The position numbers and the translations under genes were made by a program. The notes under the pieces were generated by a model. That model was not told the origin of the DNA. It did not search any database and worked only from the letters and a program-made list of their open reading frames with translations. Of a stretch of 64,000 nucleotides of DNA, positions 13,921 to 61,660 are shown piece by piece. This DNA is from an uncultured Acidobacteriaceae bacterium (GTDB lineage: Bacteria > Acidobacteriota > Terriglobia > Terriglobales > Acidobacteriaceae): positions 863 through 64,862 of the forward strand of contig CAVRID010000017.1 in the NCBI GenBank assembly GCA_963721155.1, in the 5' to 3' direction. Every line of letters begins with the position of its first letter. Position 1 is the stretch's first letter.

Positions 13921-13935
13921 GCAAATTCCCGGCGC

Positions 13936-20170: not shown

Positions 20171-20314
20171 ATCTGGACTCCCCAATTGTTGTTACGCCAG
20201 CTGCAATTTGCAGGCCTGCCACCTGCCATAAACGGTCATAAGAGCGTAACGTCTGTCTTGCCCGTCGCCTCTCGTAGCTTTTCGTCATTCGTCGGTAAAA
20301 GCGTAACAACTTCG

Positions 20315-24783: not shown

Positions 24784-24960
24784 GGAGCCCAATCCCCACC
24801 AAGACGGAGACGATTGGAAAGTAGAATTCTACTTGACAGCTCTCGCGAGGGAGGATAGCCTCACCGTCATTCTAATAAGAGTTCTCAATGCAGCTGGTCT
24901 GCCGGACCTGTAGTGCCATTAATGCAATCTATCAGGCTCTGACGAGGTGATCTAAGCTGT

Positions 24961-26535: not shown

Positions 26536-26570
26536 CCGGCGCACAGGTACAAAGACAAAGTCGGCTCAAC

Positions 26571-29096: not shown

Positions 29097-31043
29097 ATGA
29101 GCCTCTTCGACTATCCGCGCATCAACTTCGAGGGCACCCTGCAACTCAACCCAGGAACCGCCAACAATGACGACTACGCTGCCAACTATTCCTTGCCGGC
29201 TTCGTACGGGCGCTTCGCGGGCCAGCCCCTGGCTCTGATTGATTCGAAGTCGGTTGAGCCGCGCACCTATGCTATGTCTGACGCCGACTTTATTGCGTGG
29301 GCGCAGCAGGTGCAAACCTTCGACATCGTGGGCCAGCCGGGACAGACGGGCCACACCATCCCCGCTGAGTGGAACTATTACGGCGCGATGAATTCGCAAA
29401 GTGTGGCGATTTTGGTTACAGGCGCCCAAGCCGGCCCCGAAGACGCAGGCAGCGGACCGCTGGCGGGCCTGCTGGGCGCGGCGCTGACGTTCTCCGGCGT
29501 CATCACGGACGTCAACTCCGAGGGATCGCCGCCCTCGACGCAGTTCTTTTTCGACGAGATGACACTGTCGGGCGGCGGCATCACTTACCTCAAGGGTGCG
29601 CCGAGTAAAGGTGCCTGCCAATGGCTCAACTTCTACCGCAACGTCAACCTGACGGCCGACGCCGGAGCGGGTGGTTACGTGTACCACGTCTTCCGGAAAG
29701 GGCCGGGTACCACCATCAACATTCCCGGGTTCGAAGCACGCGGCATCGTGGGCGCGATCTTTCGCTATTACCTTTATCGCCCGATTGCGATCAGTGACAA
29801 CGCGCAGATTGCCGAGCTCTACAAACAACGCAACACCAATCCGGTGACGATTCGCATGGCCGGAACGCTGGCGCCGCTGTATGAGCACGAAACCATCTTC
29901 ACCACACCGGTGGGCCGCTTGATGGTTGCCAATCAGGCCACGATACCCGTGCCGCAGGGTTATCAGAACAACAGTCCCAACGGGCTGATCGCGCTTGCTC
30001 CCGGAGTGGTCCAACAAAAAGGGGACAGGATCCTTGCCGATTTTGTGGGCACGTTTCCCGAGAACTATCAGGGCAATCCGAACCTACCCGATCCGAAGTT
30101 CGATTTCGGGCCGGTGTCGTTCGTGGTTGCGGCGGGTGGCGGCAGTGCGACCATCGGTTCGGTCAACTATACGAACGTAGCGGCCGGGAACCAGACGGGG
30201 TGGATCTTCGACTTCGACGTCTCTACCAATCCCGAGGCGCAAAAGATCCTGGCTCATCCCCAAGCTGTATTTAGCCTGCAAAGCACGACCTTGGGTAACG
30301 TGCTGGGCGAGACGGACTACTATTTCGTTTCCAATCAGCAGGGTATGTATACCGAGCAATTGGGCAGCGGCAAGTTGTTCCTGAATCAAGGGCGCGAGGA
30401 ACCTGCGACCATCCAGGTGTACCGCCGTGGCCGTGAGCTAGCGGCGGATCAATGCCCACCGATTACGGTGTGGCAGTACCGGTCGGTGCCCTTGGAGTCG
30501 CCAGGCAACGCCGAGATAGTCGCGACCAACTTCACGCCTGGTCAGCCGATTGTGGTCGACACTTCACAGCCGGGAAATTTCCTTTTCACGTTCTCTATCA
30601 ATGCAACGGACGTGGTGCCGACCAGTTACAGCACATTCATGAATCCACCGTATCTGACGAACTATCCGGCAATCAGTCTGCGGATCCTGCCGAACTCCGT
30701 TGATTTCAGCAAATACTATATCGACCCGAATGCGCAGGAACCGGTGGGCAACGACCTGCTGACGTTCGATGTGGTTTATCAGAACGTGCTGCGTACTTAT
30801 TATCTGCTCTATCCGGCGATGAACCAGATTTTTGCGCTGAATTCAGAGACGGAGGTTAAGAAGGTGGCAGTTTTAAAGGCCATTCTGGCGCGCACGGAGT
30901 TATCGCTCTGGATGACTAGCGACTACATGCCTCGCACCCGGGACATGTCGCATAGCCGACGTACGCTACTGCGAGCATGGTGCCGAAAGATATTGGCGGC
31001 AACGGGTGAAGGCGAAATTGTTAAGGGCCAACCTAAGGCTTAA
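29097..31043 (+). CDS. VioB/StaD/RebD N-terminal-module homologue (paralogue A1), with no ferritin-like domain attached
   Basis: The N-terminus 'MSLFDYPRINFEGTLQLNPGTANND' resembles the VioB N-terminus as I recall it (MSILDFPRIHFRG..NAPTANRD). The C-terminal 'YPAMNQIF...YMPRTRDMSHSRRTLLRAW' is also VioB-like. It is paralogous to the genes at 31121 and 36067. Confidence 0.7.
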   Translation: MSLFDYPRINFEGTLQLNPGTANNDDYAANYSLPASYGRFAGQPLALIDSKSVEPRTYAMSDADFIAWAQQVQTFDIVGQPGQTGHTIPAEWNYYGAMNSQSVAILVTGAQAGPEDAGSGPLAGLLGAALTFSGVITDVNSEGSPPSTQFFFDEMTLSGGGITYLKGAPSKGACQWLNFYRNVNLTADAGAGGYVYHVFRKGPGTTINIPGFEARGIVGAIFRYYLYRPIAISDNAQIAELYKQRNTNPVTIRMAGTLAPLYEHETIFTTPVGRLMVANQATIPVPQGYQNNSPNGLIALAPGVVQQKGDRILADFVGTFPENYQGNPNLPDPKFDFGPVSFVVAAGGGSATIGSVNYTNVAAGNQTGWIFDFDVSTNPEAQKILAHPQAVFSLQSTTLGNVLGETDYYFVSNQQGMYTEQLGSGKLFLNQGREEPATIQVYRRGRELAADQCPPITVWQYRSVPLESPGNAEIVATNFTPGQPIVVDTSQPGNFLFTFSINATDVVPTSYSTFMNPPYLTNYPAISLRILPNSVDFSKYYIDPNAQEPVGNDLLTFDVVYQNVLRTYYLLYPAMNQIFALNSETEVKKVAVLKAILARTELSLWMTSDYMPRTRDMSHSRRTLLRAWCRKILAATGEGEIVKGQPKA

Positions 31044-31120
31044 ATTGAACCACACGAGTTGACCGATTTATGGCATCGAGCCAGAAATTGGCTTGAATCA
31101 ATCAAGTGAAGGGAGAGTTT

Positions 31121-33046
31121 ATGAGCGTTCTTTCGCTTCCCAGAATTAATTTTCTCGGTGCCTGTGACTGGAACCCGAATACGGTTAACAACTCACCTAC
31201 GGTGTACGACGAAAGCACCGCCGAACCGGTCCCACAGAAAGGGATTCCCTTCGATCAATTCGTGCACTGGCTAACCCAGTTAAATCAGCAGGGTACCAGC
31301 CCGAATGGAAGCTGGAACGTGTACGGAGACCATTCCGCCACATTGGTAAACGCCATCGTAAAGACTTGCCAGCCTTCCCCGGCCAATGACCCGTTAATCG
31401 GAAAGCCCATTCAGATATTGGGTAACATACGTGGGAAGAATGCCACGCCGGCGCGTCTGGTGGATATAGATCCGTACGGCTCTACAACCTCGCAGATTTT
31501 CTACGATACGTTCAGCCTGGGCGATCAGACTCTCGGTTTCTCGGCCCATGCAGCCTGTCGAATGTTTTCGCGTTGGCCGAATTTTCAGCGAAATCTCCAA
31601 AAACTTCCGGTCGCCGGACCGATGGGCGTCATCTGGCACACAGCCGCGAAATCGTCCGATATCAAATGGTTCGGGGTGGAGCAATCGCCTACCTTACAGG
31701 CGCTGCAAAAGGCGGCGAATGCCCCTGGGAACCAGGGACTCGTCATGATATTTGCCGCTTATCGCACCCTTTACTACCAGAAAGCGACTTGGGCAGGGAA
31801 ACCGATCCAGAATGGAAAGGACCTGTCGACGGCGTATCAAGCGGGGTTTACGGACGGCAACCCAGCCGAGAGCATCATTGCCGGCACCATCGGCGTTTGG
31901 AAACAAGGCGAACTAGCCAGTGCGCCGATCGCCCGTGTGCTCGGGCCCGATGAGCCAGTCCTGCCTCCGCAGCCGGTGCTGTCCGCAAAGCGCGCCGTCC
32001 AGGAACTCGCGACGCAAGAGGTCGCAGTTGCCGAGAAATCTGTCACCTTGGGTCCTGCTTTAGCCGAAATCGATGATCAACGGCAGGTGGTGGTGCTGGA
32101 CCTGATTGCCACTTTTCCGGAGCAGAACTCCACCCTGGCAAAAGCCGACCTGGGTACCTTCCAGCTGCAGGTCCGCTCCGCCGATGGCACGGTCACACAA
32201 ATCGGACCGCCATTAACTCCGGCTGATTATGGTCAAACGGCGTACGAGGCGACCGCAGGTCTGGTCGAAGTCCCGTTCAAACCGGACCAGTTGCAAGCGT
32301 TGCAAACCGGCAGTCTGGAGATCGCACAACCAGGGAAGGAAGGCACACCCGCTCTCGCTGAGCAGTCTCTGGTGGCGGAGACCGATCAGCGGGGTGTGTA
32401 CGTCGATCAGAGCCAGACCCGGTCCATCACGATAAACGTCTACCAGAAGGGCCAGCTCGCAAGCGGACCGACCCAGCTCCAGATCCTGGTTGCGCAGTAT
32501 GACAACCAGGGTACGCTGATCACGAGTAGTCAGCAGCGGCTGGTGGAAGTGCTCGATCAACAAGGAAAGCCGCTAACCGGGGGCGTAGCCAGCGTGGACA
32601 ATGGAATTGCTTCCATCAAGGTCCGACCTCTGCAACCCGGCACGTGCTCCCTGGGATTCTTTCCATTTCAGGTGGGACAAGCGCTGCCGCAACCGCCCAG
32701 CAATGGATTCCCGGGTACGGGGGATTTCTACGCAGCTATTCGCACACTTCCCTTCGACAACAAGTTCGAGCACCTTCCACCCGACCAGGTGGTGGACTGG
32801 AACTTCGTCTACCAGCATGTTCTTCTCAACTTCGACGTGGTGTATCCCGTAATGTCGTTAATCATCAACCTGCACAATGAAAAGGCAATCGATTCGAGCG
32901 CTCCGGCCATCGAGCATGCAATCTCGCCGTCGCAGTTCGAGTCTACGCTGGCCATGCCCATCACGCGCGAGATGTCGGCGGGTAAACGAGCGCTCTTGCT
33001 CAAATATCTGCAGAACATTGGAAAAACTCCGAGCCCAACGCGCTAG
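31121..33046 (+). CDS. VioB/StaD/RebD N-terminal-module homologue (paralogue A2)
   Basis: ATG at 31121 follows AGGGAGAG. Motifs include 'MSVLSLPRINFLGACDWNPNTVNNSP', 'GVWKQGELASAP' and 'YPVMSLI...MPITREMSAGKRALLLKYL'. Confidence 0.7.
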   Translation: MSVLSLPRINFLGACDWNPNTVNNSPTVYDESTAEPVPQKGIPFDQFVHWLTQLNQQGTSPNGSWNVYGDHSATLVNAIVKTCQPSPANDPLIGKPIQILGNIRGKNATPARLVDIDPYGSTTSQIFYDTFSLGDQTLGFSAHAACRMFSRWPNFQRNLQKLPVAGPMGVIWHTAAKSSDIKWFGVEQSPTLQALQKAANAPGNQGLVMIFAAYRTLYYQKATWAGKPIQNGKDLSTAYQAGFTDGNPAESIIAGTIGVWKQGELASAPIARVLGPDEPVLPPQPVLSAKRAVQELATQEVAVAEKSVTLGPALAEIDDQRQVVVLDLIATFPEQNSTLAKADLGTFQLQVRSADGTVTQIGPPLTPADYGQTAYEATAGLVEVPFKPDQLQALQTGSLEIAQPGKEGTPALAEQSLVAETDQRGVYVDQSQTRSITINVYQKGQLASGPTQLQILVAQYDNQGTLITSSQQRLVEVLDQQGKPLTGGVASVDNGIASIKVRPLQPGTCSLGFFPFQVGQALPQPPSNGFPGTGDFYAAIRTLPFDNKFEHLPPDQVVDWNFVYQHVLLNFDVVYPVMSLIINLHNEKAIDSSAPAIEHAISPSQFESTLAMPITREMSAGKRALLLKYLQNIGKTPSPTR

Positions 33047-33087
33047 GCGGTGAATAACGCAAACTAGCGGTGGAAAGGACGGTCGCT

Positions 33088-35469
33088 ATGAGTCTCATTG
33101 ACTCGAATCGCCAACCAAAGACCCCTGCTCTACACCCGGCCGTGGATAACTGGGATCCCGGGAAGACACTTAAGATCGAAGCCACCGAGAACCCACTTCC
33201 GAACTCCACCCTCGGCGATCTGGGAGTGGCCGCCAGCGTCACAGGAAGTGCGAACTTTCCGTTGACGCTGCTGGTCCTTCCACTCGCCGAAGATGGATTG
33301 ACCGGGATCGATACGTCTTCCGTGCGAGTTTTTCGATGTGACAAAAAGAATAAGCGATATGCGCCGGTTTGGAATTCAGGTATTAACGTTGCCCACGGTT
33401 TTGTTTGGGCCAAGATCCAGCAGCCTGGCATCTTCGTAGCCATCGGTTTGCCGGCCGATCTGGTTTTGAAGGAGTGCCTGCAGCTCGTCTCGCAGCAGCG
33501 CGCTTATTTGGACTCCGGTGCAGCCGAGGAAGTAACCGCATTGACCAAGAGCACCATTACTCAGTTCCTCGATCTGCCGGAAGAGGACTTGGCAACGCTA
33601 CGCAAGATAACCGCAGCGAGCGCGTTAAATTCAGGTGTGAAGCCGGCCTCGCCGAACCAAGTTGAACGAGGGGAAGGTTTTCACGTCACCGGCTTTACCC
33701 TGCCTGGTGGCGGCTCGGTCGCTCAATTGAAGGATCGCATTGCCAAACTGAAAATCCCCGCGGATGGCTTGCCGGAAGAAAGCCTTTTCCTTGGGCCCGA
33801 CCGCCAGGCGATGGGAGTACCACTTTACACACAACTGGAACACGATTCCCTGTTGACATCGAAAATCAGTGCCATGGTTATTCCGGAGTGGAAATCGTGG
33901 CCTCCGATTCATTTTCCATTCTGCTGGTTGTTCTCGCGGAACTGGCCGATGTACCACCACGACCACGACCATAGCGGTCACGCCTCCGGCTGCAGTGGTC
34001 TTACCAGCACGACGGTACAGAATTTGGTCCTCAAGAAATCCGTCGCGGTTCCGGAAGGCGGTACCTTCGTTTCGATTCCCACGATCGCGCACGGCAAGGT
34101 CTACATTGGTACTACCCAAGTAGGCGGCGCAGACGGAGGTTACCTATACAAGATAGACATCGCCACCGGCAACATCGATCACAAGTTCGGAGTTCCCAAC
34201 CGTTTTCCGGCCTACTTCCCAGGGATCGGCGGGTCACCGGCAGTGGCACATGGCCGGATCTACTTCACTGGCCTGCCCGGCTACGTCTATTGTCTGGATG
34301 CGGCCACCTTCGCTGTAGTGTGGTCCTTGGACTTGCGAAATCCCAGCACGGCCATGAACCAGCCAGTCACGAATCCGGTCGCCGATAGCTGGAGTTCACC
34401 AGTAGTGGTGCACGACCGGGTGTACATCGGTTGTGGTGAAGGCGAATCGCAGGCATACGGATTCGTCTATTGCCTCAATGCTCACAGCGGTCATGTGATA
34501 TGGCTGTATAGCACCGACCAGTTCGTCACTGGAACGGACAACTCACCGAACGTTATTCCTGCCGGCGCGGTTGGCTTGCATCCGATGCCAGCCGGGTTCA
34601 CTTCCCATCCGGACCCCCCGCAGTTAGGCGCCTCGGTGTGGTCGTCCTGCGCCTACGATTCCAGGCTTCATCGCATCTATTTTGGCCTCGGCAATTCCTC
34701 CACTGGCGGAGGCCCCCCCGGCGCCATCGACTACAAGTACGGCAGCGGCGTCTTATCCCTGGATGCTCACACGGGAGCGTTCAAGGGCTATTTTCAGCCG
34801 AATCCGTCGGACAGCTACTATCCGGGCGATAGCGACATCGACATTTCCAGCAGTCCGACGCTCTTCAGCCACGGCCACCACCGAGTTTTGGCGATCGGCA
34901 GCAAGAGCGGCGCGTTCATGCTGTTGAACGCTGACACTATGAAGAAGATGCATATTCGTAACGTGCTGCCGCGCGACGCGGCGACGGGTGGCCCACTACC
35001 GAACGTCGACACCGGCGGAAAGACTGGCGGAGAGAACATGTACGGTGTCTTTGGCACCGCCGCCGTCCACCACGGCCTAGGCCGCTTGTTCGTGGGTGTC
35101 GGTGGCTATGCCGGCATAGGCGATGTGTCCACGACCCCGTTCTTGAGAGCGTTCCACTGGAACAACCTCCACGATGCCTGGCACATGGCCAACCAAACGA
35201 TTAACGGCCATCCGGTGGCGAAGTACACGGTACCGGTGCCGCCTATGTACCAGACCGGCGAGGCTGGATGCAGTTCGCCGGCTGTGGTGAACGACGTCGT
35301 CTTTGTATCCACTAACCTGTCGGCGCTGTACGCATTGGACGCCAACACCGGCCTACCCTTGTGGTCGGCTCCGGGACTACCTGGCGGTCAATTCATCCTG
35401 GGACCTGCCATCTACGGAAATCATGTGGTGGTGGGCGCCGGCGGAACGGTGTTTATTTACTCAACCTAA
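33088..35469 (+). CDS. PQQ-like (BamB-type) beta-propeller repeat protein with a ~300-aa unassigned N-terminal extension (B1)
   Basis: Motifs include 'GKVYIGT', 'HGRIYFTGLPGYVYCLDAATFAVVWS' and 'SSPAVVNDVVFVSTNLSALYALDANTGLPLWS'. No signal peptide is evident. Confidence 0.75.
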   Translation: MSLIDSNRQPKTPALHPAVDNWDPGKTLKIEATENPLPNSTLGDLGVAASVTGSANFPLTLLVLPLAEDGLTGIDTSSVRVFRCDKKNKRYAPVWNSGINVAHGFVWAKIQQPGIFVAIGLPADLVLKECLQLVSQQRAYLDSGAAEEVTALTKSTITQFLDLPEEDLATLRKITAASALNSGVKPASPNQVERGEGFHVTGFTLPGGGSVAQLKDRIAKLKIPADGLPEESLFLGPDRQAMGVPLYTQLEHDSLLTSKISAMVIPEWKSWPPIHFPFCWLFSRNWPMYHHDHDHSGHASGCSGLTSTTVQNLVLKKSVAVPEGGTFVSIPTIAHGKVYIGTTQVGGADGGYLYKIDIATGNIDHKFGVPNRFPAYFPGIGGSPAVAHGRIYFTGLPGYVYCLDAATFAVVWSLDLRNPSTAMNQPVTNPVADSWSSPVVVHDRVYIGCGEGESQAYGFVYCLNAHSGHVIWLYSTDQFVTGTDNSPNVIPAGAVGLHPMPAGFTSHPDPPQLGASVWSSCAYDSRLHRIYFGLGNSSTGGGPPGAIDYKYGSGVLSLDAHTGAFKGYFQPNPSDSYYPGDSDIDISSSPTLFSHGHHRVLAIGSKSGAFMLLNADTMKKMHIRNVLPRDAATGGPLPNVDTGGKTGGENMYGVFGTAAVHHGLGRLFVGVGGYAGIGDVSTTPFLRAFHWNNLHDAWHMANQTINGHPVAKYTVPVPPMYQTGEAGCSSPAVVNDVVFVSTNLSALYALDANTGLPLWSAPGLPGGQFILGPAIYGNHVVVGAGGTVFIYST

Positions 35470-35543
35470 GATGGGCCCGAGTCCTGGCAACGCGTAGGAC
35501 TCGGGTTCAGGTTCTCTCCCTCTCTCCTTCATCGGTTGGAGCG

Positions 35544-36029
35544 ATGATTATCATGGGCCATGACAACGATGGTGCAATCTTGATTGTCGAATGGTGCAAT
35601 GACTGGCTAAAGCAGTACATCCGAGACTGTGGTGCCGTCGCGGGTTCCGTCCACTTGCGGGAGAGCAGCGGACTGCGGCTCTCGGCGGCGGTCAATATCC
35701 CTGAGAAAGTTCAACAGATTGTCGAGTGGGTACCGTCTGGCAAAGGTATGGCGGGACAGGCGCTCGCTCGAGGCGAACCTATTTTCACCTGCAATCTAAA
35801 AGATGATTCGTCGGGTGCCATACGGCCGGGCGCGAAGGCGGTCGATGCGCAAGCTGCTGTAGCGTTGCCGGTGCGGGATGAAGCAGGGACTATTGTCGCG
35901 GTGGTTGGGATAGCGTTCGCCCAAGAGCGTTCGTTCTCAGCAGCGGATATCACAGGCTATCTCGTCAAAGCGAAGAGTTTAGTGGCCCAAATCGGAAGTA
36001 GTCCTAGTGCGTCTGCGACCAAAAGTTGA
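35544..36029 (+). CDS. Stand-alone GAF domain protein
   Basis: ATG at 35544. 'VPSGKGMAGQALARGEPIF' and 'AVALPVRDEAGTIVAVVGIAF' show the GAF/fRMsr-like topology. Confidence 0.6.
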   Translation: MIIMGHDNDGAILIVEWCNDWLKQYIRDCGAVAGSVHLRESSGLRLSAAVNIPEKVQQIVEWVPSGKGMAGQALARGEPIFTCNLKDDSSGAIRPGAKAVDAQAAVALPVRDEAGTIVAVVGIAFAQERSFSAADITGYLVKAKSLVAQIGSSPSASATKS

Positions 36030-36066
36030 TCGCTAACCAAGGTATTGTTTTCAGGAATGGACGAAA

Positions 36067-37902: not shown

Positions 37903-37917
37903 TTCACGAGAGGCCCT

Positions 37918-38988
37918 ATGATTCTTCTCAAATCGGAAGTCGCCGCGAATCTTGACGGCACACTGCCTGGCGTCCGTCGTGCGCTTCAGCAAGCTATCGA
38001 GTTGGAGCACGCGACGTTGCCCACCTATTTGTACGCGCTTTACTCGCTCAAGCCAGACACGAACGAGCGCATCGCCACTCTGATGCTCTCCGTGATCATG
38101 GAAGAGATGCTCCACATGGCGCTCTCTTGCAACATCCTCAACGCCGTGGGTGGACATCCAGTAATCGACAAGGCCGATTTTATTCCGGCGTATCCAGGCC
38201 CGTTGCCGGGCGGGATCGAGTCCAACCTCGAAGTGCCGTTGGCCCCTTTCTCCCTGGCTTTGATTGAAAACGTCTTCATGGTGATTGAAGAACCGGAAGA
38301 TCCACAGCATTTCCCGGTGAAAACAGAGGCGCTGGCGGCCGAAGCGCAAATGACCATTGGTCAGTTCTACGACCGCCTCAAGCGTTGCATTATCGAACTG
38401 TCGGAGAAGGGCAACATATTCACGGGCAATGCAAGCTATCAATTGACGAAGGGCTTGCCGGGATTGATCGCGGTTCACGACGTAAGTACGGCTTCTGATG
38501 CCATCGATACGATCGTGCGGCAAGGGGAAGGCACGCACACATCTCCACTCGATCCGCAGCACACGCCAGCACATTACTATCGTTACGCCGAGATCTTTTA
38601 TGGAAAGACACTGGTACCGAACACGACTCCTCCGCCGGACTTCGCCTATGCAGGCGAGGCGATACCGTTCGATCCCGACGGTGTCTATCCGGTAGTAACA
38701 AATCCGGCTCTGGATGGCTACGCGCCGAAGTCGGCGGCCTCCTTCAACAACGACACGTTCAATTACACTTACACAAGCCTGCTCTGTACGCTTCACATCC
38801 TCTTCAATGGCCATCCTGACCGGCTGATCGCGGCCATCGGCTTGATGGAGTCGCTCAAGGAGCTAGCGTTCGCAATGATGTCGGCGATTCCGGCGGGGCC
38901 AGCCGTGCCAGGCCTTAATGCGGGACCCAGCTTCCAGTACAATCCCACGAATCCTCCTGGATCGTCTAAAGCTATTAAAGAGAACTAA
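37918..38988 (+). CDS. Ferritin-like domain protein of the VioB/RebD C-terminal type (F1)
   Basis: Two ExxH motifs are present in 'ALQQAIELEHATLPTYLYALYS' and 'IMEEMLHMALSCNILNAVGG'. 'QGEGTHTSPLD...HYYRYAEIFYG' is also present. Confidence 0.75.
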   Translation: MILLKSEVAANLDGTLPGVRRALQQAIELEHATLPTYLYALYSLKPDTNERIATLMLSVIMEEMLHMALSCNILNAVGGHPVIDKADFIPAYPGPLPGGIESNLEVPLAPFSLALIENVFMVIEEPEDPQHFPVKTEALAAEAQMTIGQFYDRLKRCIIELSEKGNIFTGNASYQLTKGLPGLIAVHDVSTASDAIDTIVRQGEGTHTSPLDPQHTPAHYYRYAEIFYGKTLVPNTTPPPDFAYAGEAIPFDPDGVYPVVTNPALDGYAPKSAASFNNDTFNYTYTSLLCTLHILFNGHPDRLIAAIGLMESLKELAFAMMSAIPAGPAVPGLNAGPSFQYNPTNPPGSSKAIKEN

Positions 38989-39037
38989 AGCGGCGCACAC
39001 TGTGTGTATCAGACCTTGGAACCAGCGCGGTTGACCT

Positions 39038-41008
39038 ATGATGTTCGGCCGTCTTCAGTTTCTGATTGTCGTCCTATATTTGGTCGCCTTTGTGCCGTTA
39101 TGCCAGGCCCACACGCCGACCGAGCCTCCCTCTCCGCAAAGCAAGGATGATTCAGCGTCCAGCAAAACGACTCCTAACCCTCCGAGCACCACTAAGCCTA
39201 CTCTCGTGACTGTCGTCACCGTCACTGGTGAACCTCTGACCGTCTCGCTGGCTCCAGCCTCGGCCAGTGTGGTTGATGACGAAGAGATGAGGGACGCTCA
39301 CGCACTCACTTCCGCCGATATCATGCGCGCTGTGCCGTTCGTCAACCTTGCACAAAATGGCAGCGCCGGTTCTCTCAGCACCATCACGATTCGCGGAGGC
39401 AAGCCCAATCAGGTGCTGGTGATGATCGACGGTATCCCGGCGAACGATCTAAGCAACCTGCTCGGAGGGGCCTTCGATTTCTCCAGCCTACTCACTCATG
39501 ATGTCGAGCAGATTGAGGTGGTAAGCGGTCCATTATCTTCCGGCTACGGTTCAGAAGCCATGAGCGGGGTTGTCAATGTGATCACGAAGCCCACGCATTA
39601 CGAATCTAACCTCAGCGGCGGCATGGAGACTGGATCGTTCGGCACCGCGGGGGTGAACCTTGGAGCGGAAGGACTGAAAGGCCGGCTGGGATACAAGTTG
39701 TCGGGATCGTTTTTGCGGGTAGGGGAGCAAGTGGAATCCGACGCTTTCTCCACCAGCACGTTTTCCGTAGCCTCAGACTACGCTCACAGTTCGAACACCA
39801 TTGTGAGTTGGACGGCGCGGTGGATCCAATTCGACCGCTCAGGTCTCCCCGAAGGTGGAGGAGGGCCTGAGTTGTCAATCCTCAGAATCCCCAAGACCAG
39901 CAACTCCGGCAACATCCTGGGCGGCTTTGAAGTGCAACATCATTTCAACGATCTCTGGACGGTCAACATCGACGCCGATGTTTTCACGAGAGGTGAGCAC
40001 GCTTACACGCCCCCGATTCTCGATAGTCCTCATCCTTCCCCGGCATCGCAGCCCAGCACCGACACTTACACCCGGTTCACCCGTTCGCGGATGACTCTGC
40101 AGAACGTGTTCAACTTCAAGCCTAAGCTGCAAGGCCATTTCAATGTGCAAGGCGCGGACGAACTTGGATACAACAACACACTTATCCAAGCAGTTTATCC
40201 GTCGCACTTCAGCGAAAACAGGGGCATCTTTAATGCCAACGGCGATCTCGTTTACTCCACGCCAAGAATGACCGGAATGGTGGCCCTCGGGATCAATAAG
40301 ACTGCGGGATTCAACGTGCAGCTTGCGCCGCGGGTTGGCGCCGCTGTGCCGGCCGGAAAAAATACGATCATCAAGGCAAGTTGGGGGCAAGCCTTTCAGG
40401 TGCCTTCTTTGTATGCGCTCGGCAACCCTAACGTTGGCAATCCAAATCTCCAGCCGGAGAAACTGACGGGCATGGATGCAGGGGTGCAGCATCGTTTCGG
40501 CGAGAGATTTACTGTGTCGGGGACCTATTACTACAACCTCTTCTCAAACCTCATCGATTTCAGCTCGGTCGCTTTTCGCTTAGTCAATCGGTCACACGTG
40601 CGTACTGAAGGGGCCGAAACGGCAGTGTCATTAGCAGCACGCTGGATACAAGTGAGGGCCTGGGGATCATTTCTTGATTGGCAGATCGAGCCTGCAGGTG
40701 AGCCGTTGCGCGACCAGCCTGACTGGCAGGCCGGGTTCAGCCTCGATGCTAAGTTTCCCAAACAGATCAGAGCGTCCAGCACTACATTATGGGTGGGCAG
40801 GAGGTATGACTTCCAAGTACCTGCACCAACCATTCCCACCGTAGGAGGGTATTCCACGACAAACTTGGTAGCCGGATACTACGGGTTTCGGCATACCTCC
40901 CTATATGCCAGGATTGACAACCTTTTCAATGCGCGATTTCACGAATATCTTGGCTTTCCCAACCCCGGCATAGCCGCGCAAGTAGGCATTCAGTATCGCT
41001 TGCGATGA
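39038..41008 (+). CDS. TonB-dependent outer-membrane receptor
   Basis: The signal peptide is 'FLIVVLYLVAFVPLCQA'. A plug motif 'ITIRGGKPNQVLVMIDGIPAND' is followed by a ~500-aa beta-barrel region. Confidence 0.85.
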   Translation: MMFGRLQFLIVVLYLVAFVPLCQAHTPTEPPSPQSKDDSASSKTTPNPPSTTKPTLVTVVTVTGEPLTVSLAPASASVVDDEEMRDAHALTSADIMRAVPFVNLAQNGSAGSLSTITIRGGKPNQVLVMIDGIPANDLSNLLGGAFDFSSLLTHDVEQIEVVSGPLSSGYGSEAMSGVVNVITKPTHYESNLSGGMETGSFGTAGVNLGAEGLKGRLGYKLSGSFLRVGEQVESDAFSTSTFSVASDYAHSSNTIVSWTARWIQFDRSGLPEGGGGPELSILRIPKTSNSGNILGGFEVQHHFNDLWTVNIDADVFTRGEHAYTPPILDSPHPSPASQPSTDTYTRFTRSRMTLQNVFNFKPKLQGHFNVQGADELGYNNTLIQAVYPSHFSENRGIFNANGDLVYSTPRMTGMVALGINKTAGFNVQLAPRVGAAVPAGKNTIIKASWGQAFQVPSLYALGNPNVGNPNLQPEKLTGMDAGVQHRFGERFTVSGTYYYNLFSNLIDFSSVAFRLVNRSHVRTEGAETAVSLAARWIQVRAWGSFLDWQIEPAGEPLRDQPDWQAGFSLDAKFPKQIRASSTTLWVGRRYDFQVPAPTIPTVGGYSTTNLVAGYYGFRHTSLYARIDNLFNARFHEYLGFPNPGIAAQVGIQYRLR

Positions 41009-41111
41009 AAGGAATGCGATCGATCTCCATAGAATTGGTCTAGACGGGACGTCTTTCTTACGGGATACTCGTTAGCAATTTCGGATATTGCATCTGCGGC
41101 CTCGAGCACTC

Positions 41112-42152
41112 ATGATCCGGCTGAAACCACAACTATTCGCAGACCTGGACGGCACCGTAGAAGGATTGCGCCGGGCGTTGCAGAACGCGATAGAACTTGA
41201 GCACGCGACGATTCCTACTTATCTGTATGCGCTCTATTCGATTAAACCGGGAACTAACCAGGAGATTGCCGGCCTGATCAAATCGATCGTATCGGAAGAG
41301 ATGCTGCACATGGCGCTGGGCTGCAATATTCTCAATGCGCTTGGCGGCGCGCCGAAGATCGACGACCCCTGCTCCTTGCCAAAATATCCCGGGCCGCTTC
41401 CAGGCGGCGTGGAAAGTGACCTGATCGTGCCCCTGGCGCCATTTTCAAAGCAACTGGTGCAGGACACCTTCATGGTGATTGAAGAACCGGAAGAGCCGCT
41501 TCAATTTCCGGTTCGGGATTTTGCCGCGCTCAGCGTCGAAGAGCAGGTGACTATCGGCCAGTTCTACGCGAAAATCATCGAGCAGATTAAACAGCTCTCG
41601 GATGGGATTTTTACGGGTGATCCCAATAGGCAATTGACCACCGGGTTCAAGCCGCTCCAACAGATTCAGGTCAATAGCGTCGACACCGCGGTTGCGGCCA
41701 TTCAACTTATCATGCAACAGGGTGAAGGCACGACAACTTCTCCTCTGGCTCCGGGGCGAGAGCCAGCGCATTATTACCGCTTTGCGGAAATCTACTATGG
41801 CAGAAAGCTGATCCGTAATCCCGAGACGGCAACCGGGGCGCTGGAGTTCGTGTACGGGGGCCACAAGATCGAGTTCGATCCAGCGGGAGTCTCGCCCGTG
41901 ATCTCGAATCCGAACCGAAACACCTACGCTCCCGAATCGAAAGCGCGAAGTCTTAATGACGCGTTCAATCACACCTACACCGGCCTGCTGAAATCGCTGC
42001 AACTTGTCTTTAATGGAGAACCGGATCGACTCGGACCGGCTATCGGGCTGATGGAAGCGATGAAGGAACAGGCGCAGGTGATGATGTCAACCCAAACGGT
42101 TCAAGGCCAAACAGCTGGGCCCAGTTTTGAATACAGCCCGGTGAGTCCATAG
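41112..42152 (+). CDS. Ferritin-like domain protein of the VioB/RebD C-terminal type (F2, paralogue of F1)
   Basis: It is colinear with F1, with 'ALQNAIELEHATIPTYLYALYS', 'VSEEMLHMALGCNILNALGG' and 'QGEGTTTSPL...HYYRFAEIYYG'. Confidence 0.75.
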   Translation: MIRLKPQLFADLDGTVEGLRRALQNAIELEHATIPTYLYALYSIKPGTNQEIAGLIKSIVSEEMLHMALGCNILNALGGAPKIDDPCSLPKYPGPLPGGVESDLIVPLAPFSKQLVQDTFMVIEEPEEPLQFPVRDFAALSVEEQVTIGQFYAKIIEQIKQLSDGIFTGDPNRQLTTGFKPLQQIQVNSVDTAVAAIQLIMQQGEGTTTSPLAPGREPAHYYRFAEIYYGRKLIRNPETATGALEFVYGGHKIEFDPAGVSPVISNPNRNTYAPESKARSLNDAFNHTYTGLLKSLQLVFNGEPDRLGPAIGLMEAMKEQAQVMMSTQTVQGQTAGPSFEYSPVSP

Positions 42153-42160
42153 GTACGTTC

Positions 42161-43876
42161 ATGAGTAAAACGGATTGGTGGATGTACCACGGCGACGCCG
42201 CCCACACAGGGCTAGCGAAAGGTAGCCGAATAAACGCCCGCAATGCCGGGGAACTCAAGCTACTACATGACATCGATCTCCCGGGTCCGGTTCTTTCAGT
42301 GCCTGCGTTGGTGGATGGCTTCGTTTATGTGGGGCTCGCGAACAGCCACGACGCTCCTGGTGCGAATGGCGGACAGCTACTGAAAATCGACGTGACAACC
42401 GGTCAGACTGTCGCCAAATTTGAATGGGCAATCGACCCAGCGGACGGCGATAGTCACGGCTTCATGGGCATGGGCTGCACACCAGCAGTGATCACGAACC
42501 CAGCTGACGGGAAGGTCAACGTTTATTTCAGCGCCTTTAATGGCAAGCTCTACTGCCTGGCCGCCAGCGACTTGGAACCGGTCTGGGTCACAGACCTGAG
42601 AAACGCTGACCCTGCGCACAACCAACCGGTCTCGAACGTCGGGCCTGGCGCACCTCCGGCCGCAGGATGGAGTTCGCCGGTGGTCGCTACCGATGTTCTG
42701 AATGGTTGCGTCTTCGTCGGCATGGGGGAAGGCGAAAATCCCGCTCTGTTTGGCTTCGTTTTTTGTTTGGATATGACGACCGGCAACGTTAACTGGATGT
42801 ATTGCACCTGCCAATTTCAGGAAGGCATTGCCAATCGACCAAACGTTCTACCGCCTGCGGTCGTGAAGGGCGAACTCCCCTGGCCGTTTAGCGTCGGGCC
42901 TGTGAACCCGACGATTCGCGGATGCTCCGTGTGGTCTTCCATCGCATACGACGATTTGCTTGATCGCCTCTATTGTGCGACGGGCAACCCGGTGCCCGAC
43001 ACCACGTTACCCTCCAAGGGTTTTTCGAACGGCATTCTTGCCCTTGACGCAACCAGCGGAGAGTTCAGGGGATTCTTCCAGGCACCGCCGGAGAGCAGCT
43101 ATCGCGACACCGATGTTGACGTAGATTTCGGCGGCTCTCCAGTGCTGTTTACAAAGAACGGACGCCGATTTGTGGCCGCCGGATGCAAGAATGGCGGCTT
43201 CTTCGTGCTGGATGCGGTTACGATGGAATTAGCTGGTTGGCGACAACTGTTGCCGTACTACAACGACGGGAAGCGGATTCCGTCCGTAGATCCGCATATC
43301 GGACCCAATGATCCGCGGCTTGATCCGCTCGTACCGAACCGCATGTCGGAAGGCGAGGACCAGGAGAACTATTCTGGAACCTACAGCACCCCAGCTATCC
43401 ACGAAGATCTCGGCCGGATCTTCATTGGAATCGGTGGCAACAACTACCACAATGTGCAGGCGGGGATCGACTGCGCAACCACTCCGTTCCTTCGCGTCAT
43501 GGATTGGCAAACGCTTGACGATGCCTGGGAAATGGACAACAGCAATCCCAGGCTGTATGTCCACGCTCAGCCGCCCATGTATCGAACCCCTGGAGAGTCT
43601 GGCCTGAGTTCGCCCGCAGTGGTTAACGACGTTGTCTTTTTTTCTACGTCGAAAATCGCTTTATACGCTTTCGATGCCTGGAGCGGGAAGCCGCTATGGG
43701 AAGACCAATTGGGTGAGCAGACGGGTGGGATGAACGGCGGGTATGGATACTGCCTCGGCCCGGCCATTTGGAGCGATTTCGTTGTAGCAGGGGCGCTCGT
43801 ATTTGGCAAGCGCGGTGGGGTACTGCGGATTTATGCACTGCCCGACCGCGAAAGCCGTAAGTCAGGTGGCCAATGA
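42161..43876 (+). CDS. PQQ-like (BamB-type) beta-propeller repeat protein (B2, paralogue of the B1 C-terminal part)
   Basis: Motifs include 'WWMYHGDAAHTG', 'DGFVYVGL', 'GKLYCLAASDLEPVW' and 'SSPAVVNDVVFFSTSKIALYAFDAWSGKPLW'. No signal peptide is evident. Confidence 0.75.
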   Translation: MSKTDWWMYHGDAAHTGLAKGSRINARNAGELKLLHDIDLPGPVLSVPALVDGFVYVGLANSHDAPGANGGQLLKIDVTTGQTVAKFEWAIDPADGDSHGFMGMGCTPAVITNPADGKVNVYFSAFNGKLYCLAASDLEPVWVTDLRNADPAHNQPVSNVGPGAPPAAGWSSPVVATDVLNGCVFVGMGEGENPALFGFVFCLDMTTGNVNWMYCTCQFQEGIANRPNVLPPAVVKGELPWPFSVGPVNPTIRGCSVWSSIAYDDLLDRLYCATGNPVPDTTLPSKGFSNGILALDATSGEFRGFFQAPPESSYRDTDVDVDFGGSPVLFTKNGRRFVAAGCKNGGFFVLDAVTMELAGWRQLLPYYNDGKRIPSVDPHIGPNDPRLDPLVPNRMSEGEDQENYSGTYSTPAIHEDLGRIFIGIGGNNYHNVQAGIDCATTPFLRVMDWQTLDDAWEMDNSNPRLYVHAQPPMYRTPGESGLSSPAVVNDVVFFSTSKIALYAFDAWSGKPLWEDQLGEQTGGMNGGYGYCLGPAIWSDFVVAGALVFGKRGGVLRIYALPDRESRKSGGQ

Positions 43877-44427
43877 TCGCGACGCTCCTGCTGTTCGGCG
43901 TTTTGGCCGGCCTGGACAACTTACAGGTCTGCTCTTCCATCGGGCTGCTTCCCCTGTCCAGAGTGCGCATGCGTTTATTGGCGGTGGGCTTCATGGTGTG
44001 CGAGATTGCTGCGCCACTGGCGGGATTTCTAATTGGCCATGCGGCACTGGCGCTAGTCAAGCCTTATGCCCGGATGGCTGGGCCGTTAATGACGATGCTG
44101 TGTGGCGCCGCGGTTTTGGCGGCGGCGCTATGGGGCGAGCGCGAAACTGATTCAGTGAAAGCTAACCGCTTCCTCCTTGGGCTGCCTCTTTCGTTGAGTC
44201 TTGACAATGTCGTGGCTGGGGCAGGGGTGAGTTCTATGCATTGTGACGCTTGGACAGCGGCTCTGTCCATCGGGCTGGTGAGCGGCGGAATGTCGTGCGT
44301 AGGGCTTTACGGAGCAGCGTTGTTGCGCCATTCGTTCCAACGGATAATACCGATTCGCGTCGAACCGCTGATGGGCGCATACCTGTGTGCACTGGCGGTG
44401 CGCATGTTGCTGGTGGGCAGGGCCTAG
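43873..44427 (+). CDS. MntP/YtaF-like (DUF204 x2) membrane protein, putative Mn2+/metal exporter
   Basis: Two DUF204-type motifs, 'AGLDNLQV' and 'SLSLDNVVAGAGV', align by eye with E. coli MntP 'SMDAFA' and 'SLDAMAVGVG'. A TM2 Glu lies in 'VCEIAAPLAG'. There is a 4-nt overlap with the upstream gene. Confidence 0.55.
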   Translation: MIATLLLFGVLAGLDNLQVCSSIGLLPLSRVRMRLLAVGFMVCEIAAPLAGFLIGHAALALVKPYARMAGPLMTMLCGAAVLAAALWGERETDSVKANRFLLGLPLSLSLDNVVAGAGVSSMHCDAWTAALSIGLVSGGMSCVGLYGAALLRHSFQRIIPIRVEPLMGAYLCALAVRMLLVGRA

Positions 44428-44429
44428 CG

Positions 44430-45896
44430 ATGGTACCAGTCGCGGATGGTCTGGATTTTCCTACCAGCGTGGTCATCAACCCTCGAGGCTCGATCTTTGT
44501 TGCCGAGTCCGGATTGCCGTTCGACGGGGCGCTGGTCGGAGGCGTTGTTTCCGAAGTATTTCCCGACGGTAGCCGCGCACCTCTCGCAGAGGGTCTCAGA
44601 CCACCAGTCAATGGGCTGGCGTGGCATGAAGGATCGCTGATTGTCTCGGAGGGTGGAACTCCGGGGCGCATCAGCCGCCTTGACCCCGAAACCCGCGAGC
44701 GTTCGACTATTCTCGACGGACTGCCAGGATTCGGAAATTATCACACCAATATGGCGGTGCCCGGTCTCGACGGCAGGCTTTATTTCAGCCAGGGTGCAAT
44801 GACTAATAGCGGTGTCATTGGACCCGACTCCTGTGATCTGGCATGGCTTCGCGAATTGTCACACAACTGCGATGTGCCGGGCTACGATATCACCTTGGCC
44901 GCTTTCGAGGCCGAGACCCCCGATCCGCGTTCTTCGGTTGGTGCACGGGTGCGAACCGGCGGCTTTTCTCCCTTTGGTACATCGGCTGCAGGCCGCCGAA
45001 TTGCCGGGCAAGTCCCGTGTACTGCATCAGTCATGCGTTGTGATTCAGACGGTTCCCACCTGGAGGTTGTGGCCTGGGGACTGCGCAACGCTTACGGCCT
45101 CGGGTTCCTTCCCGATGGACGCCTGATCGCGATAGATCAGGGCGCTGACATGAGAGGGAGCCGTCCGATTGCGAATTGTCCCGATTTCCTGTACGAGGTA
45201 CGCAAAGGCGCCTGGTATGGATGGCCCGATTTCTATGGAGGAAGTCCAGGGACGGACCCCGCGGATTTCATTCTTGCAAATCATGAAGAACTTCCGCCTC
45301 CCGAATTCGCGCTGGTCGAATTCAAACCCAACTCCTGCGCTGTGAAATTTGCGATCGTCCCCAACGGCTTGCCTCATGCGGGCGACCTGATTGTCGCACT
45401 TTTCGGGGACGAGAAGCCAATGGCCGCACCAGAAGGTCCGCGTGTCGGGCGCGAATTAGTCCGCGTTTCGCCGTGCGACTGGTCATTGCACCCGGTTGCA
45501 CCGGTGTCTCTGCGGCGTCCGATCGATATTGCGTTCTGCCCGCGTTCGAAAGCGGCTTACGTTCTGGATTTCGGAGAGTTTGAGATGACAGGAGGCGGGG
45601 GAACTACTGCCCGTGCAGGGAGTGGCTGCCTTTGGAGGCTGCCGCCGAGCTTTATGGAGGTACAAATGGATTCGTCAGTTTCTTTCGAAAAAGACATCGT
45701 TCCTATTTTTCGGCAGTTCCGTGGCGCGATGATGTGGCGGTTCGACCTGACAAGGTTCGAGGACGTCAAGTCAAATGCGGCGGCAATCTACGCCCAGATA
45801 TCTTCGAACTTGATGCCTCTCCCGCCCTTCCCGCCCCTCACGAAAACACAGATTTCCCAATTCAAGGCGTGGATGGACAACGGCTTTCCTGAGTAA
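44430..45896 (+). CDS. Soluble glucose/sorbosone dehydrogenase-like (SGDH) beta-propeller with an extra ~75-aa C-terminal domain
   Basis: ATG at 44430 lies 3 nt after the upstream stop. 'GLRNAYGLGFLPDGRLIAIDQGAD' is SGDH-like. The C-terminal module is 'DIVPIFRQFRGAMMWRFDLTRFEDVKSNAAAIY...MPLPP' (nt 45666-45893). Confidence 0.65.
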   Translation: MVPVADGLDFPTSVVINPRGSIFVAESGLPFDGALVGGVVSEVFPDGSRAPLAEGLRPPVNGLAWHEGSLIVSEGGTPGRISRLDPETRERSTILDGLPGFGNYHTNMAVPGLDGRLYFSQGAMTNSGVIGPDSCDLAWLRELSHNCDVPGYDITLAAFEAETPDPRSSVGARVRTGGFSPFGTSAAGRRIAGQVPCTASVMRCDSDGSHLEVVAWGLRNAYGLGFLPDGRLIAIDQGADMRGSRPIANCPDFLYEVRKGAWYGWPDFYGGSPGTDPADFILANHEELPPPEFALVEFKPNSCAVKFAIVPNGLPHAGDLIVALFGDEKPMAAPEGPRVGRELVRVSPCDWSLHPVAPVSLRRPIDIAFCPRSKAAYVLDFGEFEMTGGGGTTARAGSGCLWRLPPSFMEVQMDSSVSFEKDIVPIFRQFRGAMMWRFDLTRFEDVKSNAAAIYAQISSNLMPLPPFPPLTKTQISQFKAWMDNGFPE

Positions 45897-46718: not shown

Positions 46719-46990
46719 ATGAAACAGATCCTGGATAAACGCCCGTTCCTGATTTTATGGTTGACCATCACATCCATCTGCTGCGCGCCAACCAGCAACG
46801 CTCAGCAGAGCGTGCTGACATTGGCCTATCAACTCACTCATATTGACCAGGGCGAGCCGTTTCTTTGTCCGGACGGCGCGAAAATCGTCTTTGAGACAAG
46901 CGTTGCGGAATTCCAGCAGGTCTTCATCATGAACGCGGATGGAACCGGCCGAACGCAGGTCACCCACGACCCAACGGACAATGGAACACC
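46719..46990 (+). pseudogene. N-terminal fragment of a TolB-like/WD40-like periplasmic beta-propeller gene
   Basis: A signal peptide is followed by 'PDGAKIVFE...IMNADGTGRTQVTHDPTDNGTPA'. Protein-like sequence is then lost exactly where the integrase frame begins. Confidence 0.45.
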
Positions 46991-48030: not shown

Positions 48031-48115
48031 AGGCCTGTACCCACCTAGTAAGCTTATGTGACCCTTATCTGACCCAGATTGTTTTCGCGGATTCGCGGCA
48101 AGTCCAAGAAAAGAA

Positions 48116-48191
<76 letters not shown>

Positions 48192-52940: not shown

Positions 52941-53000
52941 TAACGTACACGCGGTTCAGGTCATCGAATGAAGTGAGTAGTAAAGAAGCGTCAACCTGTA

Positions 53001-61639: not shown

Positions 61640-61660
61640 CAGCAGGCGGTCAGACCTTCT

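Follow-up and report, generated by a model that had tools for sequence, protein, structure and literature searches.

An eleven-gene cluster in an uncultured Acidobacteriaceae bacterium appears to be a composite of three recurrent modules, built from unfused homologues of both halves of the haem enzymes VioB, StaD and RebD. The cluster lies on the forward strand at positions 29097-45896 of a 64-kb stretch of contig CAVRID010000017.1, which was analysed as a whole and is referred to here as the window. VioB, StaD and RebD stand at the entry to the biosynthetic pathways for violacein, staurosporine and rebeccamycin, and they have neither a solved structure nor a Pfam model for their N-terminal 580 residues. 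In the cluster, three proteins (A1, A2 and A3) correspond to the N-terminal part of these enzymes and two ferritin-like proteins (F1 and F2) to the C-terminal half. With a probability of roughly 0.5, the genes encode a cytoplasmic multi-subunit haem/di-metal oxidase system that acts on a non-bisindole substrate. This reading builds on homology, colinearity, conserved residues, gene linkage and the absence of bisindole partners; from these we infer the complexes, cofactors, location and chemistry described below. The unfused, multiplied form and the partner set are new here; the fold family itself is known only through VioB/StaD/RebD.

The A proteins are genuine but old paralogues. A1 and A2 are 21% identical over their full length (E 6e-23), and A3 and A2 are 22% identical (E 3e-11), in agreement with the original prediction, which described three paralogues of ~610-650 residues and quoted N-terminal motif strings that are all present in the translations. 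None of the three matches a Pfam family. TIGR04492, the VioB/StaD/RebD equivalog model with a curated cut-off of 1250 bits, detects residues 550-627 of A1 (VioB 501-577, E 3.4e-6, 25.2 bits) and residues 538-635 of A2 (VioB 487-584, E 2.1e-17, 62.2 bits), with no match to A3 or F1. When an A-family profile built around A2 (66 sequences) is compared by hhalign with a VioB/StaD profile (23 sequences), the alignment spans 567 columns with a probability of 100% (E 5.6e-63), and residues 1-630 of A align with residues 1-582 of P0378. The homology proposed between A and the N-terminal part of VioB/StaD/RebD therefore runs along the full length of the proteins, covering ~580 VioB residues. P0378 is the NCBI-named VioB of Chromobacterium phragmitis. 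It was the best return, at 91% identity, of a search with a VioB query sequence, which also returned StaD/RebD-type 'chromopyrrolic acid synthase' proteins; downstream work used only the database sequences returned. VioB strings quoted in the original prediction are likewise found in P0378.

An alignment of 69 sequences, comprising A1, A2 and A3 types together with VioB/StaD N-terminal halves, contains 32 columns that are at least 85% conserved. In A2 numbering, these include M1, S2, R8, F11, G13, T21, N23, N66, G69, D115 and W152, followed by P248, G255, R272, Y370, E414, Y575-P-x-M578 and M612-P-x-T-R616. A1, A2 and A3 retain the residues conserved between A and VioB, with two conservative exceptions in A2 (A271 for Gly and F571 for Tyr). 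The three invariant arginines of A, together with Asp, Glu, Tyr and Trp, suggest a carboxylate-bearing small-molecule substrate or haem propionates as binding partners. In the AlphaFold2 model of A2 (predicted local distance difference test, pLDDT, 93.2; predicted template-modeling score, pTM, 0.91), the N-terminal and middle parts are rich in beta structure, and the two invariant Met motifs sit in a helical C-terminal region at ~545-635. Foldseek finds no PDB neighbour of this model, the 50 matches listed being immunoglobulin-like sandwiches with TM scores of at most 0.15. A phmmer search of A against the PDB gives no match, and the VioB profile has no relative there by sequence. A likeness of A to the quinoprotein amino-acid oxidases LodA and GoxA was rejected, given the lack of a Pfam match and of any LodA among the 50 Foldseek PDB matches listed. 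In fungi, lodA-like quinoprotein amino-acid-oxidase genes reportedly adjoin PF12902 ferritin-like genes (PMC4417212), which prompted the comparison and is another case of an imine-forming oxidase paired with a homologue of the VioB C-terminal half.

The F proteins are also real and old paralogues, although closer to one another (57% identity, E 4e-137). Both contain the ferritin-like domain PF12902, as had been predicted for the genes starting at 37918 and 41112. The matches cover profile positions 1-220 of 221 in F1 (E 1.4e-65, 221.7 bits) and in F2 (E 1.2e-69, 235 bits), against a gathering score of 22.3. TIGR04492 aligns residues 52-227 of F2 with VioB 666-831 (21.2 bits), and hhalign matches the F profile to VioB/StaD with a probability of 99.6% (E 6.8e-25), placing F2 residues 14-341 on P0378 596-935. 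The C-terminal half of VioB is thus the counterpart that the original prediction had assigned to these proteins. Residues common to F1, F2 and the VioB C-terminal halves are E30, Y37, E63-M64-x-H66, N72, E124, Q-G-E205-G, H220, N266-P and M314; F1 retains E30, E63-M64-x-H66, E124, QGEG and H219, all shared with VioB. Together with the two Met and three Arg of A, this bacterioferritin-like Glu/Glu-Met-x-His set provides candidates for the putative haem and metal sites. The nearest F homologues, at 57-71% identity, come from metagenome-assembled genomes of Bryobacterales and Acidobacteriaceae, consistent with the Acidobacteria-like origin first proposed for this DNA.

The AlphaFold2 model of F2 is a helical bundle (pLDDT 86.6). 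Its only real PDB neighbour is CC_0557 of Caulobacter (3hl1, PF12902; Foldseek E 4.9e-9, TM 0.57/0.68; profile E 1.5e-18), the only solved structure that resembles F2, with Dps and bacterioferritin next at marginal scores. 3hl1 shares the E...E-M-x-H...QGEG motifs with F, but it is 24% identical, covers only the first ~210 F residues and is itself uncharacterised. Bacterioferritin and Dps are more distant still (Foldseek E >0.1, TM 0.2-0.27); F is twice as long and has no sign of a cage or of iron storage. The first two helices of F, with the E...E-M-x-H segment, align weakly with bacterioferritin 1nf4 and with 9viw (E 0.011). In bacterioferritin, the corresponding Glu and Glu-Met-x-His residues are di-iron ligands and include the haem-ligating Met. 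This correspondence would give haem binding across the VioB family a rationale that can be tested.

Because A corresponds to VioB 1-582 and F to VioB 596-935, A and F together reproduce the VioB architecture in order, and the matching parts are separated in VioB by a linker of only ~14 residues. TIGR04492 also matches A1, A2 and F2 in the correct VioB order, and the window's gene order of A then F mirrors the VioB domain order. Motifs common to both systems are the N-terminal PR..F.G...T.N, GxxGxW..GE.a..P.GR, YPxM and MPxTR in A, and E, E-M-x-H, E, QGEG and H in F. The differences are equally clear. The window encodes separate chains (A, 611-648 residues; F, 346-356 residues), whereas named VioB/StaD-type proteins have 990-1142 residues. 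It has three A paralogues at 21-22% identity and two F paralogues at 57%, its proteins score 21-62 bits against TIGR04492 and so stay below the equivalog level, and they fall in separate tree clades. A closer parallel to the fused enzymes is a split VioB-like pair in metagenomic locus L087, in which P0453 (668 residues) overlaps by 4 nt an adjacent gene for a 417-residue PF12902 protein, again as unfused A then F. P0453 is 43% identical to VioB and nests in the StaD-like clade, which indicates a recent split of a true chromopyrrolic acid synthase type; compared with P0453, the A proteins of the window reach just 14-78 bits.

The genetic company also differs from that of VioB/StaD/RebD, with propellers, an MntP-like protein, a GAF protein and a TonB receptor in place of a tryptophan oxidase, P450, VioC/D or VioE. 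A Pfam scan of essentially every open reading frame (ORF) of at least 150 residues in the window finds no amine oxidase, P450, VioC/D-type flavoenzyme or monooxygenase, or VioE, as the original prediction had stated for L-Trp oxidase, VioE, VioC/D and P450. Among the recurrent neighbours in ~170 related loci, no Trp oxidase, P450 or VioC/D/E was seen. Chromopyrrolic acid synthases contain haem and couple two imines at C-beta, and in published indolocarbazole clusters the synthase is accompanied by both the oxidase and the P450 (PMC10851217). Full-text searches of the available literature library found no description of unfused VioB homologues or of such a gene set, in line with the original remark on the lack of a described function for this arrangement.

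The gene set recurs elsewhere as three modules: an A3-type gene followed by F; an F2-type gene followed by PQQ (pyrroloquinoline quinone)-type propeller, MntP and GSDH-like genes; and a GAF gene with a pair of A genes, often beside an outer-membrane receptor. The ~170 related loci gathered include an F-anchored genome set of 79 loci, annotated by similarity to window proteins, and an A2-anchored metagenome set of 80 loci, obtained with a narrower A2-type alignment. Neighbours were annotated from stop-to-stop ORFs and similarity to window proteins, with partners lacking a window homologue judged by rough clustering only, and the 13-15 Undibacterium genomes count as non-independent observations. 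Both flanks could be assessed for 65 F genes. An A3-type gene immediately precedes 29 of them, and a PQQ propeller gene, normally with MntP and GSDH-like genes after it, immediately follows 24; two combine both neighbours and 10 lack either one. By score, every propeller-linked F is nearer to F2 than to F1, which places the window's two F paralogues in functionally distinct subtypes. The E-values, and the return of this gene set in numerous independent loci, show that the observation is not due to chance.

A-then-F pairs are found in at least 11 phyla (Bacillota, Chloroflexota, Planctomycetota, Actinomycetota, Bacteroidota, Chlorobiota, Gemmatimonadota, Myxococcota, Verrucomicrobiota, Pseudomonadota and Acidobacteriota), with Paenibacillus, Chloroflexia, Hymenobacter/Dyadobacter/Spirosoma, Longimicrobium, Chromobacterium and Photobacterium among the carriers. 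In Paenibacillus (L007), for example, the 639-residue protein encoded upstream of F matches the A profile with an E of 6.3e-43. Carriers of the F-PQQ-MntP-GSDH module are Acidobacteriota, many Undibacterium, Lysobacteraceae and other Burkholderiales. The conserved partner set marks a candidate for a new pathway in soil bacteria that are abundant (Acidobacteriota, Undibacterium and Lysobacteraceae). Cultured carriers of parts of the gene set include Paenibacillus sp. YYML68 (A-F pair), several Undibacterium species (F-PQQ-MntP-GSDH), Chromobacterium haemolyticum DSM 19808, Hymenobacter aranciens and Sorangium cellulosum So ceGT47. In Undibacterium, the module is followed by a gene with a Lipocalin_5 domain (L020:14782-15354); in the close relative L001, another Lipocalin_5 gene (L001:4226-4666) precedes the A1-A2 pair by a few kb, and the window has none.

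Outside the window, A1-type genes always adjoin an A2-type gene (L001, L089, L121, L124, L129, L136-138 and L152). The A2-anchored metagenome loci contain recurrent GAF/A2-type/A1-type triads and also F-then-A2-type pairs. Homologues of the 799-residue propeller (PQQ799) stand beside GAF and TonB-receptor genes in L008, L010, L089, L100, L103 and L168, and in L124 an outer-membrane receptor (CarboxypepD_reg/OMP_b-brl_4) and another PQQ-like propeller stand beside the GAF-A-A triad. Most of the window's gene set is present in a different order in L099, L103, L168, L089 and L006. Neighbour annotation revealed no informative conserved enzyme near the Undibacterium modules or the GAF-A-A loci. Apparent A-F fusions in L063, L074 and L166 were discarded as artefacts of stop-to-stop ORFs or frameshifts.

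Given this recurrence, the window reads as A1-A2, PQQ799-GAF, A3-F1, the TonB receptor and F2-PQQ571-MntP-GSDH-like, where PQQ571 is the smaller PQQ-type propeller (Table 1). All eleven genes were recovered as ORFs at or near their earlier coordinates. The original prediction of eleven co-directional forward-strand genes with gaps from -4 to about 100 nt holds, the gaps being 77, 23, 74, 37, 15, 49, 103, 8, -4 and 2 nt with family-consistent starts. Its treatment of the genes as a single cluster is less apt; all are present, but they are better seen as three recurrent modules side by side. The gaps between A3 and F1 (15 nt), F2 and PQQ571 (8 nt), PQQ571 and MntP (an overlap of 4 nt) and MntP and the GSDH-like gene (2 nt) fit co-translation. 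The A2 start at 31121 yields the family-wide N-terminus MSxL (MSVLSLPRINF), and the conserved Met1-Ser2 argues that the annotated starts are right. The GAF gene probably starts at 35544 rather than at 35361, to which its ORF extends, and 44430 is a more likely start for the GSDH-like gene than 44250. The cluster contains no riboswitch and no Fur, PerR or MntR regulator, and promoter-like and terminator-like sites in it are not above shuffled expectation.

From 1.84 billion representatives, the A profile retrieves at least 2174 clusters of unfused A proteins (50% identity, E <= 1e-3), and the best 150 of the 2174 are all 382-803 residues long. The F2 search returns more than 2200 proteins, of which the best 120 are all ~345 residues long. 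The VioB-seeded search, by comparison, returns 78 proteins at E <= 0.001, nearly all of them fused and ~1000 residues long. Since unfused A and F are far commoner, the unfused form is the common state and the fused enzymes look like a specialised branch. A neighbour-joining tree, unrooted and with midpoint placement only, resolves four clades, A1, A2, A3 and VioB/StaD, and the split pair of P0453 and its 417-residue PF12902 partner nests inside a StaD-like subclade; fusion or fission looks to have occurred more than once. The fused bisindole enzymes are probably a specialised offshoot of the larger unfused family, and not its source; with the tree unrooted, this direction is inferred. The original prediction that VioB had been 'dismantled' into subunits probably has this direction reversed, given 2174 unfused A clusters, more than 2200 F proteins and A-F pairs in at least 11 phyla against 78 VioB-type proteins. 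Viewing the bisindole enzymes as the fused tip of a larger two-protein family changes where the origin and mechanism of their chemistry should be sought, and the unfused family gives smaller, separately expressible subunits for structural work.

The partner set proposed at the outset (two PQQ-like propellers, a GAF protein, a TonB receptor, an MntP-like protein and an SGDH-like propeller) is supported by Pfam, the GSDH match being sub-threshold. Both PQQ-type propellers match the PQQ propeller families, and the closest known systems are PQQ-dependent alcohol dehydrogenases and the 'acido-empty-quinoprotein group A' (TIGR04528). They score 84-92 bits against TIGR03075 (cut-off 480) and 65-71 bits against TIGR04528 (cut-off 650), with PQQ799 at 91.5 and 70.7 bits, respectively, and so remain far under the cut-offs. 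True PQQ dehydrogenases are periplasmic, whereas the window propellers lack signal peptides and reach only 65-92 bits against cut-offs of 480-650. PQQ571 matches the quinohaemoprotein alcohol dehydrogenase 1kv9 (E 1e-8), in an alignment that leaves the position of the catalytic Asp ambiguous. PQQ799 has an N-terminal extension of ~290 residues (33070-33940) that matches no family. The last propeller scores 20.2 bits against PF07995 (GSDH; cut-off 25) and matches NF033206 (ScyD/ScyE) over 54 N-terminal residues (E 1.1e-9, 38.3 bits; cut-off 80). For the homologue in Undibacterium, SGL and NHL are also among the families touched. By eye, the last ~70 residues of the window protein resemble a cytochrome-c-type domain that lacks the CxxCH motif.

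GAF homologues of 145-165 residues occur in 27 related loci, typically directly upstream of an A2-type/A1-type pair. The TonB-dependent receptor, with homologues in 26 related loci, contains Plug (PF07715, E 2.1e-21, 76.8 bits) and barrel (PF00593, E 2.4e-24, 87.5 bits) domains, and its N-terminus, MMFGRLQFLIVVLYLVAFVPLCQA, reads as a signal peptide. Its best NCBIfam match is BtuB/TonB-B12 (169 bits; cut-off 600), followed by haemin and siderophore families. It does not reach the BtuB level, with 169 and 135 bits against TIGR01779 and NF007926 (cut-offs 599.7 and 836), nor does a riboswitch accompany it in the cluster. The MntP-like protein matches PF02659 over profile positions 8-152 of 152 (49 bits; cut-off 24.4), and its homologues in 38 related loci lie nearly always between PQQ and GSDH-like genes. 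It matches no NCBIfam equivalog, which leaves manganese export as a putative function. The receptor alone is exported. Both the MntP-like protein and a doubtful 392-residue protein encoded upstream are polytopic in the membrane, whereas none of the A, F and propeller proteins has a signal peptide. This absence of signal peptides suggests that the soluble components act in the cytoplasm.

In the favoured reading, A3 and F1 would assemble as a two-subunit equivalent of VioB, a haem/di-metal oxidase. The helical C-terminal region of A3, with its YPxM and MPxTR motifs, directly precedes the ferritin-like domain in VioB and would therefore dock on F1 when the two are split. F would supply a bacterioferritin-like site (E30, E63-M64-x-H66, E124, E205 and H220), and A the substrate-binding part. 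F2 may work with the MntP-family membrane protein and with the PQQ-type and GSDH/ScyE-like propellers in the cytoplasm, the four genes being putatively coupled in translation, while A1 and A2 could form a paralogous pair acting with the small GAF protein. The receptor would carry something across the outer membrane, be it substrate, haem or a metal chelate. The predicted substrate is a small molecule, electron-rich, carrying a carboxylate and distinct from the bisindole precursor, which would undergo one-electron oxidation or coupling. The VioB-like chemistry of the original prediction is suggested by conserved residues only. A broader proposal, put forward only tentatively, is that A, F, the empty-quinoprotein-like propellers, MntP-family and GAF proteins and the receptor represent a widespread undescribed metabolic system. 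Such a system might apply VioB-type haem/di-metal radical chemistry to a common non-tryptophan substrate, for example in making or recycling a cofactor, pigment or signal, and VioB/StaD/RebD might be a late fusion recruited from this ancient system.

Several observations weigh against this reading. A and F are not obligate partners, as no A gene lies within 10 kb of the Undibacterium F2-type modules and an A2-type gene stands alone in L004. An unrelated secreted protein of ~420 residues without a Pfam match is encoded directly upstream of A2-type genes in 27 loci, Nostoc included, and has no homologue in the window. No enzyme able to supply an imine or enamine substrate was identified, and F resembles bacterioferritin only weakly (E 0.011). 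A-then-F pairs that stand isolated, with no tailoring genes, are unlike a typical biosynthetic cluster, and the TonB receptor and the MntP-like protein suit metal or haem homeostasis equally well.

That last point leads to the best-surviving alternative, which we nevertheless consider unlikely, namely peroxide defence or metal/haem homeostasis. A and F would then be catalase- or peroxidase-like haem/di-metal proteins or haem/iron-handling proteins, the receptor would import haem or a metal chelate, the GAF protein would sense or bind a tetrapyrrole or metal, and the MntP-family protein would move Mn or Fe across the inner membrane. F does fall within the ferritin superfamily, where Dps and bacterioferritin are its distant neighbours in structure and sequence. 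The MntP-family gene is tightly linked to F2-type genes in its 38 loci, the best models of the receptor are BtuB, haemin and siderophore receptor families, and RebD reportedly has catalase activity. Isolated A-then-F pairs across many phyla also resemble housekeeping or stress genes more than biosynthetic clusters. However, the receptor's matches are all far under the family cut-offs and no periplasmic binding protein or ABC importer accompanies it, the cluster has no Fur, PerR or MntR regulator or riboswitch, and the ~20 invariant residues of a 600-residue A protein, three Arg among them, are more in keeping with a specific small-molecule substrate than with peroxide alone.

A catabolic or uptake locus is rather improbable. 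The receptor would import an environmental aromatic or tetrapyrrole-like compound, to be degraded or transformed by cytoplasmic A/F oxidases and dehydrogenase-like propellers. A-type pairs are repeatedly near outer-membrane receptors (L001, L006, L099, L103, L111, L150 and L124), dehydrogenase-type propellers are always close by, and the carriers come from soil, peat and freshwater. Yet the gene set has no conserved association with a known type of inner-membrane importer or with downstream catabolic enzymes (ring cleavage, CoA chemistry), and in the Gram-positive Paenibacillus no receptor accompanies the A-F pair. A cryptic bisindole or related natural-product pathway, with the tryptophan oxidase and tailoring genes elsewhere in the genome, is very unlikely: although the only characterised relatives make bisindoles, the residues common with VioB are fully conserved and the last propeller weakly matches the ScyD/ScyE family of the scytonemin (indole alkaloid) cluster, every described cluster keeps the oxidase and P450 with the chromopyrrolic acid synthase (PMC10851217) and neither is present in the window or the ~170 loci, the window proteins reach 21-62 bits against the VioB cut-off of 1250 and fall in clades apart from VioB/StaD, and the ScyE match is under its cut-off.

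Table 1. Genes of the cluster, other features of the 64-kb window and a recurrent gene of related loci
Feature	Position	Strand	Description
A1	29097..31043	+	648 residues; VioB N-half homologue, A1 subfamily; no signal peptide
A2	31121..33046	+	641 residues; VioB N-half homologue, A2 subfamily
PQQ-type beta-propeller (PQQ799)	33070..35469	+	799 residues; PF01011, PF13360, PF13570; no signal peptide
Stand-alone GAF-domain protein	35544..36029	+	~161 residues; PF13185 GAF_2, E 2.8e-11
A3	36067..37902	+	611 residues; VioB N-half homologue, A3 subfamily; putative partner of F1
F1	37918..38988	+	356 residues; ferritin-like PF12902, VioB C-half homologue, A-linked type
TonB-dependent outer-membrane receptor	39038..41008	+	656 residues; Plug and barrel, signal peptide
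F2	41112..42152	+	346 residues; ferritin-like PF12902, VioB C-half homologue, propeller-linked type
PQQ-type beta-propeller (PQQ571)	42161..43876	+	571 residues; PF01011, E 1e-16; no signal peptide
MntP-family polytopic membrane protein	43873..44427	+	184 residues; PF02659, E 7.2e-13
GSDH/NHL/ScyE-like beta-propeller	44430..45896	+	~488 residues; ~70-residue C-terminal domain; no signal peptide
Polytopic membrane protein (doubtful accessory gene)	27818..28996	+	392 residues, hydrophobic; no Pfam or NCBIfam match
Organosulfur-utilisation-like set	19556-27776	+	FMN reductase, two SsuD-like luciferase-type monooxygenases, 524-residue shikimate-dehydrogenase-like protein, SfnB/DszC-like acyl-CoA-dehydrogenase-fold protein
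Phage-integrase-family ORF	46939-48030	+	~1 kb downstream of the cluster; abuts tRNA-Asn(GTT)
tRNA-Asn(GTT)	48116-48190	-	Adjoins the integrase ORF
1795-residue ORF	4863-10250	-	One multicopper-oxidase domain
Cytochrome c fused to periplasmic binding domain	12352-13920	-	
SCO1/SenC gene	13936-14637	-	
Three-domain multicopper oxidase	60149-61639		Adjoins the OprB porin
OprB porin	61661-63106		Adjoins the three-domain multicopper oxidase
Secreted ~420-residue protein (related loci)	L114:2277-3533; L002:7231-8544; L006:1662-2903; 24 further loci		Upstream of A2-type genes

The genes upstream of the cluster are not counted as members. The 392-residue membrane gene keeps its place directly upstream of A1-A2 only in the close relatives L089 and L100 (83-87% identical) and is next to A1-A2 in none of the distant related loci. 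The shikimate-dehydrogenase-like and SfnB/DszC-like genes likewise stay beside A1-A2, together with the 392-residue membrane gene, only in L089 and L100. The FMN reductase, the SsuD-like pair, the SfnB/DszC-like gene and the shikimate-dehydrogenase-like gene were left out, as their synteny is confined to these 83-87% identical relatives.

Downstream, the integrase ORF and the adjoining tRNA-Asn raised the idea of a genomic island, which was rejected. The tRNA region has no repeat of at least 13 nt elsewhere in the window, so no island boundary can be defined, and GC content is flat. A 486-residue ORF (46719-48179) overlaps the integrase ORF and the tRNA and looks spurious after its first ~90 residues. 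Further along, two tandem nadA riboswitches (53000-53132, forward strand; 58 and 52 bits, with a gathering score of 37.5) directly precede the quinolinate synthase gene nadA (53144-54262). A copper theme also appears elsewhere in the window, with the multicopper oxidase, cytochrome c and SCO1/SenC features at 4863-14637 and a second multicopper oxidase and porin at 60149-63106.

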